A stretch of DNA of 64,000 bases from Nitrosopumilus sp. (GTDB lineage: Archaea; Thermoproteota; Nitrososphaeria; Nitrososphaerales; Nitrosopumilaceae). The stretch spans positions 512,001 to 576,000 of the forward strand of contig OY759726.1 in assembly GCA_963662625.1 (NCBI GenBank). Direction: 5' to 3'. The notes under the pieces were generated by a model. It was given only the letters and a program-made list of their open reading frames with translations. It had not been told where the DNA came from and ran no database searches. Every line of letters begins with the position of its first letter. Within the stretch, counting starts at the first letter, position 1. Below, in pieces: positions 46,403 through 54,374 of this stretch. A program made the translations under genes and the position numbers.

Positions 46403-47470
46403 CTATGTCACGCTTATCAGCACGATCGGCCCCTTCTCGGCGATCGGCACGCTGTTCCTGTCCCAGACGAAGGTCTCGATGAAGAACTCGCCGGCGTTGC
46501 CCGGGATCCAGTCTACCGACTGGTACTGGCTGCCCGTGCCGATGTACCGGCCGTCGTACTTGCCCACGAACTCCACGTAGGGGGAGGGCCCGAGCTGCTT
46601 CACCTGGACGAAGTAGGTGTATGGCGTCTCGTTCGTGGGCTGCGTGCCCGAGAACCGGATCTGCGACTCGCTCTCGATGCGCACCGTGGTGCCCGCCGGG
46701 ATCTCCAGGAGCTCGTTTCCGGAGGCGTCCCTGACGGCGATGTCCGTGATGGCGGCCAGCTTTGTGAACCTCTCCTGCTCGGGGAGGCGGACGTCCACGA
46801 AGTCGGAGTAGAATATGCTGGACTCGGAGAACAGCAGGAACCCCACCGCGCGGGATCCCACCTCCCCGCTGAACTCAAACGGGACGGCCTCGTTCGGGAG
46901 TATGTTCCCTAGCCCGACGGTGCGGACGTCCAGCATCCTCGGGGGATCAAACGCGTCGTAAAACGCGACGTAGACGTTGGCGCCGGTGGCCGGCGCGGCG
47001 CCGTTCTTCAGGACCCCGGAGAAGGACAGGGCGCCGCCGTGGTAGAAGACGCCGCCGGCCTCCACCGCGGGCTGCTTCGCCTTCGGGGTCGAGGTGGCAA
47101 AGCCCTGGAGGCTTACCGAGGCCTGGGTGACCGCGGGCGCGGGGGCCGCCGACTTTATGATGTACGGGGAGGATCCCGACGGGGGGATCACGTCCAGGAC
47201 GGTGCCCCCCGTGGCCGACTCCAGCGGCGTCGCGCCTGCATCGTCAAAGAAATCCACGGCCAGCCGGACGCCGGAGATCGGGGTCAGCTCGTTGTCGTTG
47301 ACGACCTGCCCGACGACCACGGCGTACCCGTCGCCGTCGCGGTACAGGAACTGGGACTCGTCCACGAGCCTGACCGTCAGGGTGGGCTCGGTGTCGGTGA
47401 GCTCGGCGGAAAACACGGGGGATGCCGGAAGCAGCGAGAGGATCAGGAACGCGGGGATGGCCTTGTACAT
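46403..47470 (-). CDS. Secreted Ig-like domain protein
   Basis: Signal peptide; beta-rich; C-terminal W.P...G.F..E.FVW pattern. Confidence 0.75.
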   Translation of the reverse strand: MYKAIPAFLILSLLPASPVFSAELTDTEPTLTVRLVDESQFLYRDGDGYAVVVGQVVNDNELTPISGVRLAVDFFDDAGATPLESATGGTVLDVIPPSGSSPYIIKSAAPAPAVTQASVSLQGFATSTPKAKQPAVEAGGVFYHGGALSFSGVLKNGAAPATGANVYVAFYDAFDPPRMLDVRTVGLGNILPNEAVPFEFSGEVGSRAVGFLLFSESSIFYSDFVDVRLPEQERFTKLAAITDIAVRDASGNELLEIPAGTTVRIESESQIRFSGTQPTNETPYTYFVQVKQLGPSPYVEFVGKYDGRYIGTGSQYQSVDWIPGNAGEFFIETFVWDRNSVPIAEKGPIVLISVT

Positions 47471-47576
47471 GGTTTGGGTGCAAGGAAGTGATTAATTTCA
47501 TGCGACATATCATATAGTCAACAAGAAAGGCAACAAGGTTTAACCCAATTACAAAAAGAGGAGCAAAAATTGAATT

Positions 47577-47681
47577 CTATCTCTTCTTCATTGCCGTAAT
47601 TGCCAACCAGTATACCAAACCCGGCGCTAAACCAACAATGAGTGGAATCCATACAGGCCATCCGTCTACTACGCTTGCCAT
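47577..47681 (-). CDS. 34-aa membrane micropeptide MASVVDGWPVWIPLIVGLAPGLVYWLAITAMKKR (not in ORF track)
   Basis: TTTAAATA box 22 nt before the ATG; T-rich terminator downstream; TM helix with basic tail; low-GC codons. Confidence 0.75.
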   Translation of the reverse strand: MASVVDGWPVWIPLIVGLAPGLVYWLAITAMKKR

Positions 47682-47766
47682 GGGTTATTGCCGTAACTTA
47701 TCCTATTTAAATCCATCCAGAAGGCCGGATTTCGCGGCTGATCGCGGGCGCCCGCAGGGATTGGAG

Positions 47767-47840
47767 TGGACTGGACGGGATTTGAACCCATGACCCCCCG
47801 CGTGCAAGGCGGGTATACTACCAGGCTATACTACCAGCCC
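47767..47840 (-). tRNA. tRNA-Ala(TGC)
   Basis: CCCGC-CT-TGC-AC-GCGGG anticodon arm; G3:U70 pair. Confidence 0.95.
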
Positions 47841-48510: not shown

Positions 48511-48613
48511 GCCCGCCTCTGGGATTGCGCGGATCCCGCGCGCGGGTTCCCTCCGGGGCAGCCGCGCGCCTGCGGGCCCCCGTGGCCGCGCCGGCTAGGC
48601 CGGGGGTTGTCAG

Positions 48614-48688
48614 TGGGCCCGATGAGATTCGAACTCATGACCTTTCGATTATCAGTCGAACGCTCCAGCCAAGCTGAGCTACGAGCCC
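48614..48688 (-). tRNA. tRNA-Ile(GAT)
   Basis: TTCGA-CT-GAT-AA-TCGAA anticodon arm; complete cloverleaf. Confidence 0.95.
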
Positions 48689-48720
48689 ACGGACAGTCTT
48701 CCGCCGGGAGTCATTTAAGT

Positions 48721-49272
48721 CTAATTTTCCTTCCACTTGATCGAGCAGCCGATCGACGGGTCAAAGTCTTTTTCTATGCCCTCCCCGGACAGCATCTTCC
48801 GGATGTTTACCGCCATGGTGTTCTCCGTCGGGGTGCTCCCGGGCTTCATGGCGTCGTCAATCCTGCCGTGAAACACCAGCTTCTTGTCCTTGTCGAAGAG
48901 GAACGGATCCGGGGTGCACATGGCGCCGTACTTCCTGGCAACCTCCTGTGTCGTGTCCACCAGGTAGTCGAACTTGAACCCCTTCTTGGACGCGACCGTT
49001 TTCATGTTGTCAAAGCTGTCCTCGGGATAGGCCGACGGGTCGTTGCTGTTGATCCCCACGATGTCTATCTTGTCCCCGAACTCGCCGTACAGCTCGTTCA
49101 GCGCGTCGGATTTTGCCTTTACGTAGGGGCAGTGGTTGCACATGAAGATGACCAGTAGCCCGCCCTTGCCGTAGTCGCCAAGCGAGTGCGTCATGTCGTC
49201 AGTCCCGGTCAGCTTGAATTCCGGCGCGGCGTCGCCCGTCCTCAGCCTGAGCTGCGATTCCAACAGGACCAT
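48721..49272 (-). CDS. AhpC/TSA-like thioredoxin-fold protein
   Basis: FMCNHCPYV, AMCTPD, GRIDD and SIGCSIKW. Confidence 0.9.
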   Translation of the reverse strand: MVLLESQLRLRTGDAAPEFKLTGTDDMTHSLGDYGKGGLLVIFMCNHCPYVKAKSDALNELYGEFGDKIDIVGINSNDPSAYPEDSFDNMKTVASKKGFKFDYLVDTTQEVARKYGAMCTPDPFLFDKDKKLVFHGRIDDAMKPGSTPTENTMAVNIRKMLSGEGIEKDFDPSIGCSIKWKEN

Positions 49273-51599: not shown

Positions 51600-52454
51600 T
51601 CAATAATTCTTGATCAGCAGCTCGTGGTGCCCCGACCTCTTTTTGGCGTCGGAGTTGATCGAGCGGCTGACCGGGATCCTGCGGACGTCCCACGGCCCCC
51701 CGGAGAACAGCCCGGAGACCTCCCCAGAGTCGGAGTTTGAGAGCATCACCATGCACCCCCTGGAGTGCAGCTCCTCGCAGAGGCCAAACAGCCTGTCCAG
51801 GTCGTCAAAGTCCCGGTCGGTATAGCTGGTAAAGTTGGCAGTCTCGCTTACGGGCTGGTACGGGGGATCAAGGTACACCAGGTCCCCCCTGCCCGCCCTC
51901 CCGGCCGCGCTTGCAAAGTCGCCGCACGTGATCGACGCCCCGCCCGACCGCAGGGCCTGGCTTGCCGCGCGCAGGGCGCCCTCGTTCACGATGTTGGGCC
52001 GGGAGTACCTGCCCAGGGGGACGTTGAACATCCCCTTGCTGTTCACGCGGTACAGCCCGTTAAAGCAGGTCCTGTTAAGGAAGAGCAGCCGGGACGCCCT
52101 CTCGACCGCGTTCCCCGGGCGGCTCGCGCGCACGGAGTAATAGTACCGCTTGGGGTCTTTCTGGTAGCGGCTCTCGCGGTCCCTCAGGGAGGAGACCAGC
52201 TCGTCGACGCTGTCCCGGATGGTGTGGTACGCCGAGACCAGGTCGCGGTTAAGGTCGGAGGCGTGGCACCTGTGGCCGTCACCCTTGGCCAGGACGTGGA
52301 ACAGCAGCGCGCCGCCGCCAAGAAACGGCTCGTGGTACGCCCCGAACGACTCCGGCAGGTTGGCGTCCAACACATGGAGCAACCTCCTCTTTCCGCCCGC
52401 CCACTTTACGAACGGCTTCGCCCCGACCAGCACCTGGCCGTACTGCCGCGTCAC
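51600..52454 (-). CDS. dam: Dam-family DNA adenine methyltransferase
   Basis: KWAGGK, EPFLGGG, FNGLYRVN...FNVP.G and DPPY. Confidence 0.9.
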   Translation of the reverse strand: MTRQYGQVLVGAKPFVKWAGGKRRLLHVLDANLPESFGAYHEPFLGGGALLFHVLAKGDGHRCHASDLNRDLVSAYHTIRDSVDELVSSLRDRESRYQKDPKRYYYSVRASRPGNAVERASRLLFLNRTCFNGLYRVNSKGMFNVPLGRYSRPNIVNEGALRAASQALRSGGASITCGDFASAAGRAGRGDLVYLDPPYQPVSETANFTSYTDRDFDDLDRLFGLCEELHSRGCMVMLSNSDSGEVSGLFSGGPWDVRRIPVSRSINSDAKKRSGHHELLIKNY

Positions 52455-52578: not shown

Positions 52579-53229
52579 TTAGTCCCACTTGGACCATGCG
52601 GCCATCCATCTGTATGTCCACGTATTGAGCTTACAGCCTAACGCTGCAAACGTACAGGACAACACTGCACCCGCACCCGCTCCCAGGGCAACTGGGCTGT
52701 TGTAGAACTTGCCCACCTGCGGTTCTATCGGCGTCATGTAAGGCGGCAGTGTAGGTCTCGGGTACTTGAAGGCCGTTTCCAATGGGTCTGCGACTGTTAT
52801 CAGGTTTACCATGTTGAATAATGGCAATGACATCCCTACCAGTACGCCGCCAAAGAAGATCAACGAGTGTTTGTTCTTCTTTGTAGCCCAGTACGCTAGG
52901 TCGAGCAGCATTGCTGACGGTAGCCATACTGGCGTCACGATGAAGTCATACGGATACCCAAGTGCGAACCACGCGCCTTTGGCGATCCACGTATAGACTG
53001 TCATGATCAGGGCATAGTACGTCGCTGTGCCTGGAACGCCTGTAAACGTAAGGTAGTATGTTGCACCTACTACAAGCATCAACGTCTGCGATATTGAGAA
53101 TACCGTGTACGAGGTCCAGGCCCAGTCAGTGTAGAAGATGTAGTCACCCGCATTAATCGTCAACAGAGTTGAGTTAACCGCAACTACTACTATGAACAAG
53201 TAGTGGGTACATCGTCTTAACCAGACCAT
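52579..53229 (-). CDS. amoA: Ammonia monooxygenase subunit A
   Basis: MVWLRRCTHYLF...TINAGDYIFYTDW archaeal AmoA. Confidence 0.99.
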   Translation of the reverse strand: MVWLRRCTHYLFIVVVAVNSTLLTINAGDYIFYTDWAWTSYTVFSISQTLMLVVGATYYLTFTGVPGTATYYALIMTVYTWIAKGAWFALGYPYDFIVTPVWLPSAMLLDLAYWATKKNKHSLIFFGGVLVGMSLPLFNMVNLITVADPLETAFKYPRPTLPPYMTPIEPQVGKFYNSPVALGAGAGAVLSCTFAALGCKLNTWTYRWMAAWSKWD

Positions 53230-53334: not shown

Positions 53335-53697
53335 CTAGTTGCCGACAAACAGCGAGATGAGTATTGTGCCCACCGTCACGCCTGCTACCGTTCCTGCCAC
53401 CAAGCCGTTGCTATTCTTGTTAGAGCCTTCTTGCATGACTTTAACGCAGAATATGTAGCCTATCGCCTCGATGATCGTGAGGACGATGAAGGCGTAGTGC
53501 CCACTCGGTGTCGGGTATGCCCACGGATAGTAAAAGTATCCGGCGGCAGTACCACCAAAAGTAGCCAACCATGCTGCTATGAAAGAGATGGTGATTATGC
53601 CGGTCATGTTTTCGACGCGTCTGCCGATCATGCGCTCTACGTCAGCGCTAGATGCGCCGCCTGCGCCGCCTGAGCCAAATCCTTTCGGGAGTGTCAT
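53335..53697 (-). CDS. amoX: Ammonia monooxygenase subunit X
   Basis: Lies between amoA and amoC; YYPWAYPTPSGHY. Confidence 0.9.
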   Translation of the reverse strand: MTLPKGFGSGGAGGASSADVERMIGRRVENMTGIITISFIAAWLATFGGTAAGYFYYPWAYPTPSGHYAFIVLTIIEAIGYIFCVKVMQEGSNKNSNGLVAGTVAGVTVGTILISLFVGN

Positions 53698-53810: not shown

Positions 53811-54374
53811 CTATGGGATTGCTCTGCTGTACAGCTTGCCCTCTAGGGCCATCTTGTACATCTCTGCAACGTACGGGTTCTCACCTGGAGTCTCTGCGCC
53901 CAGCTCTACCAGTCTGGCATATACCCTGACTACGTAGGCTAGCGCGCCCATGAATGCAACAACTACACCCATGTTAAACATCCAGTGGTTCGGTACCGCG
54001 AAGATCTCCTCCACGAACCAAAAGTGCCACATCTCGTTGATCCCGATCGTGAACATGGTCGCGAGATAACCAAGGATGGTCATCTTCAGGCCCGTGTTCA
54101 TCGAGTTGTTGGGACCCCTGAGGATCGGCACCTTCCTATCATAGATCGCTACAGACGCCCACCCTAGCGGCAGTGCCACAAAGTGGGAGTACAGCCACCA
54201 GTGTGCTGGCGTGAACGCGCTGTCCCTGATAGAGGTTTGGTGAAGTGATCCGTCGACGAAGTTGTCCACTTCGACGGATGCTGCAGTAGATCCCATAGCA
54301 ATGACGATGAGCCAGATCTTCTTAAGTCTCTGGATCTCGACTTCCTTTGGGATTAATGCCGGCATTTGTGCCAT
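53811..54374 (-). CDS. amoC: Ammonia monooxygenase subunit C
   Basis: DGSLHQTSIRDSAFTPAH; NEMWHFWFVEE. Confidence 0.98.
   Translation of the reverse strand: MAQMPALIPKEVEIQRLKKIWLIVIAMGSTAASVEVDNFVDGSLHQTSIRDSAFTPAHWWLYSHFVALPLGWASVAIYDRKVPILRGPNNSMNTGLKMTILGYLATMFTIGINEMWHFWFVEEIFAVPNHWMFNMGVVVAFMGALAYVVRVYARLVELGAETPGENPYVAEMYKMALEGKLYSRAIP

Follow-up and report, generated by a model that had tools for sequence, protein, structure and literature searches.

The window, the whole stretch of 64,000 nucleotides analysed here, carries on its minus strand a gene for a 34-residue peptide that would cross the membrane once. Among the genomes searched, the gene is single-copy and confined to lineages that carry amoA, and in two families it is the seventh gene of the amo cluster. 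That the gene is real we regard as virtually certain. That the peptide would act with ammonia monooxygenase (AMO) in the membrane, giving it a functional tie to ammonia oxidation via AMO, is the explanation we prefer, and we hold it with moderate confidence on the strength of genomic patterns. In what follows, f1 denotes the family of the genome that carries the window (G000, one contig of 1.86 Mb), and f4, f9 and f15 denote the other amoA-bearing families of the order. The GC content of the window is about 64%.

The micropeptide gene and its flanking signals

A sequence-only reading of the window had proposed a 34-aa ORF at 47577..47681, about 5 kb from amoA, with a TATA box 22 nt before its ATG, a T-rich terminator and a Trp/Pro-rich transmembrane helix with a KKR tail. 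Each of these features was recovered. The strand, which the reading had not given, is minus, the distance to amoA is 4.9 kb, and the terminator takes the form of two T5 runs that resemble a termination signal. The features at the locus are:

47577..47681, minus strand: micropeptide CDS, 34 aa plus stop; predicted single-pass membrane peptide with a short acidic N-tail and a KKR C-tail
47704..47717, minus strand: promoter block GATGGATTTAAATA (BRE-like element plus TATA box), ending 22 nt before the ATG and conserved in f1
47553..47569, minus strand: oligo-T terminator-like signal, T5 runs at 47569-47565 and 47557-47553, after the stop
47766..47840, minus strand: tRNA-Ala(UGC), directly upstream of the micropeptide gene; a syntenic neighbour

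The ORF translates to MASVVDGWPVWIPLIVGLAPGLVYWLAITAMKKR, which has 3 Trp and 3 Pro among its 34 residues, a mass of 3.75 kDa and a GRAVY of 0.98. AlphaFold2, supplied with the family alignment, predicted one helix spanning residues 11-33 (mean pLDDT 81). The positive-inside rule, applied to the acidic N-tail and the basic C-tail, and the cleavable signal peptides of the f9 and f4 homologues (see below) suggest an N-out, C-in topology with the acidic N-terminus outside and the Lys/Arg tail in the cytoplasm. Trypsin leaves a single hydrophobic fragment of 3.47 kDa by computation, so shotgun proteomics would be expected to miss the micropeptide.

The TATA octamer TTTAAATA occupies 47711..47704. 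The spacing from the end of the TATA box to the ATG was 21-23 nt at 20 of 20 f1 loci, where the block is conserved. The exact octamer occurs 43 times in the 1.86 Mb genome, counting both strands, and 20 of these occurrences are followed at 16-31 nt, mostly at 21-23 nt, by an ATG-initiated ORF of at least 30 codons. This genome-wide spacing identifies the arrangement as genuine, probably leaderless, promoter geometry. The micropeptide gene has its own strong TATA promoter and probably a leaderless mRNA, transcription itself being predicted from the DNA. A run of the CTTTTT type lies 3' of the stop at most of the 20 f1 loci, and transcription would end at the T5 runs. The tRNA-Ala gene was found within about 240 nt upstream at 14 of these 20 loci and about 1 kb upstream at one more.

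The reading had called the ORF unannotated. This held for the exact peptide sequence encoded here, which was absent from the protein collection; orthologues are present in public protein sets, where some genomes have them annotated without function, named just 'hypothetical protein' or 'uncharacterized protein' and often with wrongly extended N-termini. No Pfam or NCBIfam family matched the micropeptide at E <=10, its best score in the ESM Atlas was 0.79, under the useful range, and none of 20 pattern matches to it in viral contigs was confirmed. Rfam recognised two tRNAs and no other family between 46000 and 49500. A sequence search of the PDB at E <=10 returned 5 matches, those to PsaM being at chance level (E >=0.02); because the PDB set searched lacked archaeal AmoA, this blank says nothing on AMO. 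We found no paper that describes the micropeptide and none that contains its motif string. A library search at E <=0.001 returned 17 proteins, 13 short and 4 long (1042-5081 aa). The four long matches were taken as spurious, as each aligns over 17-20 residues and one of them, P0002, is a repeat protein. The 90% cluster of one orthologue also includes 394-aa aminotransferases, which were set aside as a clustering artefact; one of them, P0024, does not contain the micropeptide.

Several further features of the neighbourhood were recorded. Between the micropeptide gene and a 355-aa gene there is a conserved intergenic element of about 57 nt (47490-47546, minus strand), aGGTTAAACCTTGTTACCTTTCTTGTTGACTATATGATATGTCGCACAAAATTAATC, which was detected by pattern at 10 of 20 f1 loci and has no Rfam match. 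Within it are a pair of CTTGTT repeats, spaced by roughly one helical turn, and the quasi-palindrome GGTTaAACC. The element stops about 20 nt short of the ATG of the 355-aa gene, for which it is probably the promoter and operator. The 355-aa gene itself (46403-47470, minus strand) encodes a secreted protein without a Pfam family, lies directly downstream of the micropeptide gene and is syntenic there in 16 of 19 other f1 loci. The secreted protein is not a universal partner: with this query it was found in 22 of 23 genomes of f1 and 9 of 9 of f4, and in 0 of 11 of f9 and 1 of 23 of f15. On the other side of the locus (48613-49272), an AhpC/redoxin gene and a tRNA-Ile are oriented oppositely to the micropeptide gene when compared with most f1 loci. 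An AhpC-type ORF was on the other strand at 13 of the 13 loci that have it, and the tRNA-Ile call was on the other strand at 4 loci, which suggests a small local inversion in the window genome. A D12-class N6-adenine DNA methyltransferase gene (51600-52454, minus strand; GC3 0.90) lies between amoA and a tRNA-Thr and was not seen at the same place in the amo clusters of relatives that were examined.

Selection acts on the protein

By itself a 34-codon ORF is not beyond chance; what exceeds chance is its conservation. A six-frame search with the micropeptide gave a match in 24 of 24 f1 genomes at 63-97% identity, and start codon, frame and stop are kept across genomes of 27-63% GC. For 21 core codons at 20 f1 loci, pS was 0.65 and pN was 0.078 (pN/pS 0.12), and the variable columns at codon positions 1, 2 and 3 numbered 7, 4 and 20 of 21, respectively. 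It is thus the protein that is under selection, and neither an RNA nor a DNA site, a result that bears out the constrained micro-protein of the sequence-only reading.

Two profiles were used to follow the family. Profile A1, made from f1 sequences alone, reached f4, f9 and f15 at E 1e-8 to 1e-4 and gave noise elsewhere (E >0.09); profile A2 was made from 36 sequences of the four families. The f15 forms are 39-46 aa long (...FGVWIPLAFGLAVGLVYAIASAARRxR). In f9 and f4 the product is a precursor, about 65-70 aa long when counted from the first Met, that begins with a signal peptide (as in ...PSAYA/QTWGRPDSM..PLIVGLGTGIVYFIVISARRSRR). P13, G17, L18 and G21 are invariant across the 36 sequences and L14 is nearly so. 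The resulting pattern, P-L-x-x-G-L-x-x-G-(L/I)-x-Y, has the packing motif GxxxG within it, and conservation falls on one helical face (moment 1.34 compared with 0.67 +/- 0.34 for shuffles; 3.6% of 10,000 shuffles reach it). The PLxxGLxxG face would be a helix-packing surface, fitting tightly against another transmembrane helix. The 36-sequence alignment has no conserved His, Cys or Met suggestive of copper binding, which counts against a role with AMO.

Codon usage resembles that of the amo genes

The sequence-only reading had noted A/T-ending codons like those of the amo genes, and the measurements agree. GC3 of the micropeptide gene was 0.49, compared with 0.87-0.93 for ten ordinary neighbours: an AmoE-like 174-aa gene (0.90), a 117-aa gene in the amo cluster (0.90) and eight other neighbours (0.87-0.93). 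Values for the amo genes were 0.59-0.69 (amoA 0.63, amoX 0.64, amoC 0.69, amoB 0.68, amoY 0.62 and amoZ 0.59).

The specificity of this signature did not hold up. Among 1096 ORFs of at least 80 aa that passed a frame-plausibility filter genome-wide, 183 had GC3 <0.72; they fell into 66 clusters, many of them low-GC islands, and included foreign islands, the ammonium transporter Amt and a multicopper oxidase. The low-GC3 signature is therefore real and groups the micropeptide gene with the amo genes and Amt, and it is not exclusive to AMO. Either codon selection linked to expression or a slow turnover of synonymous sites could have produced it. The micropeptide may be highly expressed, a possibility for which the amo-like GC3 and the consensus TATA box at leaderless distance are indirect signs.

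Twenty of the 66 low-GC3 regions were chosen and their 33 ORFs scanned. Native-looking low-GC3 genes of this 63% GC genome were Amt (0.52), the multicopper oxidase (0.71) and a 1614-aa protein without a Pfam match (0.65), and also RadA and PCNA. Examples of isolated low-GC3 native genes lie on G000:C1 at 914836-916401, 306810-308219 and 1091081-1095925; with the amo genes, these isolated genes make up a codon-usage class of their own. At about 1661000-1693600 of the same contig, the ORF list shows large ORFs in a low-GC block, after which come numerous short ORFs that repeat the same peptide strings, a pattern expected from a long direct-repeat array, possibly a CRISPR with cas genes.

The gene co-occurs with amoA

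Presence in ammonia oxidisers and absence from non-oxidising relatives, the check that the sequence-only reading had proposed, came out in its favour. Profile A2 gave one match per genome (E <=2.3e-11) in 65 of 151 genomes of the order, which are samples of each group and include related, non-independent genomes: G000, 23 of 23 in f1, 8 of 9 in f4, 11 of 11 in f9 and 22 of 23 in f15. A search of these 151 genomes for amoA (PF12942) found it in 66, which belong to the same four families and, within f15, are the 22 genomes that have the micropeptide. The micropeptide was present in 65 of the 66 amoA-positive genomes, the exception (G089) being 76% complete. It was found in 0 of the 85 genomes of the order that lack amoA and in none of the 16 other families, with a profile that was trained on sequences of ammonia-oxidising archaea (AOA) and could miss a very divergent non-AOA homologue.

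In a class-level sample, 136 of 201 genomes matched, comprising G000, 114 of 114 in f1 (a tally that includes the unpublished genome G267), 5 of 5 in f9, 14 of 14 in f15 and 2 of 2 in f4; the match rate in other families was 0 of 65. Within f15, 75 of 81 genomes matched (the set includes the unpublished G336 and G368), as did 58 of 59 in the high-quality subset. amoA was checked in five of the six non-matching f15 genomes. Three lacked it, among them G147, which is 96% complete, and two had it and are 75% and 89% complete; so small a set tells nothing in either direction. Many gene families share the AOA-only pattern, so co-occurrence by itself does not point to AMO in particular.

Position relative to the amo cluster

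The amo genes of the window are arranged as follows:

52579..53229, minus strand: amoA, upstream of the micropeptide gene on the same strand
53335..53697, minus strand: amoX, 120 aa; orthologues adjoin amoA in 22 of 22 loci examined
53811..54374, minus strand: amoC, 187 aa
54636..55205, plus strand: amoB, 189 aa
56424..56693, minus strand: amoY-type gene, 89 aa, named after PMC10030591
56801..57133, minus strand: amoZ-type gene, 110 aa, named after PMC10030591

The amoY-type gene has the core GP.YDPLFYDVM.YIFG in common with 89-aa genes in the amo clusters of G032 and G081, the latter an f4 genome.

All 11 f9 genomes have the micropeptide gene 163-788 nt away from the amoA match; the two are convergent in 10 and in tandem in 1. 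In f4 it was 238-523 nt from amoA (a range under 0.55 kb) in seven of eight genomes and 4.5 kb away in the eighth. G032 and G081 both have the order amoZ-amoY-amoB(-)-amoC-amoX-amoA-peptide(-), in which the micropeptide gene is separate from amoX, amoY and amoZ and is therefore a distinct seventh cluster member. The profile matched a single locus per genome and never the amoX, amoY or amoZ genes, giving no sequence homology to AmoX, AmoY or AmoZ. In G081, amoA and the micropeptide gene are separated by an ORF of 70 aa (L049, 6311-6523) that is rich in Cys and resembles a zinc ribbon.

Linkage is looser in the other two families. The f1 gene was co-oriented with amoA and downstream of it in 21 of 21 genomes that have both on one contig, at 3.7-6.8 kb in 17, at about 11.5 kb in 2 and at 37 and 152 kb in 2; in 3 genomes the two genes were on different contigs. 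It has its own promoter, and tRNA and housekeeping genes stand between it and amoA, which counts against a role with AMO. So does the distance in f15, which was at least 290 kb in four complete genomes. In G038 (f15) the gene sits among ribosomal and RNA-processing genes (L44e, Nep1-like, Rpr2-like and S19e). The unlinking in f15 fits the general scattering of amo genes reported for that family in the available text of PMC10030591.

Comparison with known small membrane subunits

The composition of AMO is under revision. According to the portions available of the two sources, six subunits were proposed in 2023 (PMC10030591) and eight in a 2026 preprint (bioRxiv 10.64898/2026.08.31.748207), one of the eight being unidentified. 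Hodgskiss et al. 2023 (PMC10030591), in the text available, defined AmoY and AmoZ by two properties of their genes, restriction to AOA and synteny with amo. The micropeptide gene is likewise AOA-exclusive and amo-syntenic, yet it is absent from the candidate lists in the accessible part of that paper. In the portion of its supplements that was available, the tag expected beside amoA in N. cavascurensis and the candidate N. viennensis tags did not reveal the micropeptide. A search for the N. viennensis orthologue by way of its neighbours in the accessible part of the transcriptome table gave no candidate, the gene order there being different. Two AOA-exclusive proteins that co-migrate with AMO in the same partial source, NVIE_013530 (271 aa) and NCAV_1739 (110 aa), are not the micropeptide, by length.

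The micropeptide resembles AmoX, AmoY and AmoZ in being a small, predicted helical membrane protein that occurs only in amoA-bearing lineages and has low GC3 in the window genome. The genes also share one cluster with amoABC in early compact clusters and are dispersed in the large-genome family. There are differences, however. At 3.75 kDa, the micropeptide is smaller than AmoY (9.6 kDa) and AmoZ (12.8 kDa; both masses from the available text of PMC10030591), it has no sequence relation to the three, and its gene is mostly convergent with amoA and not co-directional (10 of 11 in f9).

The available part of the preprint describes AMO of N. maritimus, studied in native membranes by cryo-EM, as having eight subunits per protomer and 51 transmembrane helices per trimer. 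The subunits are AmoA-G, with AmoX, AmoY and AmoZ called AmoD, AmoF and AmoG, and the unidentified AmoH; no extra single-pass helix is named in that part. By our own arithmetic from this account, all 17 helices of a protomer can be assigned to the named subunits, with none to spare. The preprint account, as far as it was available, counts against the micropeptide as a stable stoichiometric core subunit in N. maritimus. The same source describes AmoH, built as a poly-Ala model, as loop-rich and closing the cytoplasmic base. Identity of the micropeptide with AmoH was set aside on this description, AmoH being loop-rich and cytoplasmic and the micropeptide almost all predicted transmembrane helix.

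A direct precedent in kind comes from bacteria. In the text available of PMC13058606, an extra helix of AMO from N. europaea (PDB 9CL6) was traced to an unannotated ORF of 46 residues. Both are unannotated single-helix micropeptides, and the bacterial helix, as there described, is associated with a copper membrane monooxygenase and illustrates how subunits of this sort escape gene callers and proteomics. The bacterial ORF is not a homologue of the micropeptide: there is no sequence similarity, and the bacterial chain was not among the 5 PDB matches at E <=10. It is also reported, in the same partial source, as restricted to one lineage of ammonia-oxidising bacteria, whereas the micropeptide occurs in all four amoA-bearing archaeal families. 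The available part of the preprint places the third helix of archaeal AmoX at the position equivalent to the bacterial extra helix.

The size class of 30-40 aa is shared with PsaM (photosystem I subunit XII) and similar single-helix subunits. Four PsaM sequences showed weak local similarity over the helix (E 0.02-0.11), a level expected by chance for hydrophobic helices. Ammonia-oxidising archaea have no photosystem, and the likeness is an analogy only, not homology.

Explanations for the function of the micropeptide

The AMO-associated role put forward by the sequence-only reading survives in part. Restriction to amoA-bearing families, a place in the amo cluster in f9 and f4 and low GC3 speak for it, and the account in the available part of the preprint, with no extra helix, speaks against it. 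A rival explanation is a small subunit or assembly factor of another AOA-specific membrane system. Candidates for that system are a copper-protein electron-transfer chain, the step that oxidises hydroxylamine, the uptake of ammonium or some feature of the crenarchaeol membrane; adjacency to amoA would then reflect shared regulation and not contact with AMO. An AOA-only distribution would be just as natural for any other system specific to AOA, the f15 gene is not linked to amoA, Amt and the multicopper oxidase belong to the same low-GC3 class, the AMO structure preprint names no such helix in the part available, and the weak resemblance to PsaM (E 0.02) shows that such peptides serve many complexes. 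We nevertheless consider another system an unlikely, if serious, alternative, given that the gene adjoins amoA specifically, inside the amo cluster, in 18 of 19 f9 and f4 genomes and that no copper-protein, cytochrome or transporter gene adjoins it in the loci examined.

The micropeptide might instead be a general housekeeping membrane peptide for protein insertion or envelope upkeep, with its restriction arising from lineage history and from detection limits for a 35-residue protein. The profile is short and AOA-trained, the f15 gene lies among housekeeping genes and the f1 gene follows a tRNA gene. This explanation appears improbable, however, because the f1-only profile found f4, f9 and f15 and none of the 16 sister families, the class-level count in other families was 0 of 65, and clustering with amoA in two families would not be expected of a housekeeping gene. 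That the locus codes for no protein, being either a chance ORF or a conserved element beside the tRNA with a non-coding or regulatory role, is highly improbable: short ORFs are abundant locally (54 of at least 20 aa listed within 3.5 kb around the locus), but synonymous sites approach saturation with the protein preserved, start, frame and stop persist over the full GC range, in-frame signal peptides were gained in f9 and f4, and tRNAs are the sole Rfam matches.

Action with AMO in the membrane, the explanation we prefer, could take several forms, each of them tentative. The micropeptide may possibly be an accessory helix that is bound loosely or in substoichiometric amounts, for instance at surfaces where trimers meet or a partner docks. 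It could, with slightly less likelihood, be an assembly or stability factor for AMO. Physical membership of AMO is a candidate role that on the genomic evidence we rate between these two, and hence as unlikely. It is also somewhat doubtful, though conceivable, that the micropeptide is a further AMO component, universal in AOA like AmoX, AmoY and AmoZ, that would either be bound peripherally via the PLxxGLxxG face or be needed to insert or stabilise AmoA. The peripheral sites proposed are between trimers of the hexagonal AMO lattice or at the docking place of a hydroxylamine-oxidising or electron-accepting partner. A peripheral site would explain why single-particle averaging and tryptic proteomics missed the peptide.

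Significance

Archaeal AMO drives much of global nitrification. In phyletic pattern and cluster position, the micropeptide gene shows the signature by which AmoX, AmoY and AmoZ were recognised. It was probably overlooked because it is passed over by gene callers in most genomes and because its product would yield no usable tryptic peptide. It costs little to include the micropeptide in annotation and proteomics databases, and doing so opens the question to direct testing. Should the micropeptide contact AMO, it would be a universal component through which assembly, lattice formation or partner docking could be approached. Should it not, it would still mark an unknown membrane function that is specific to ammonia-oxidising archaea.
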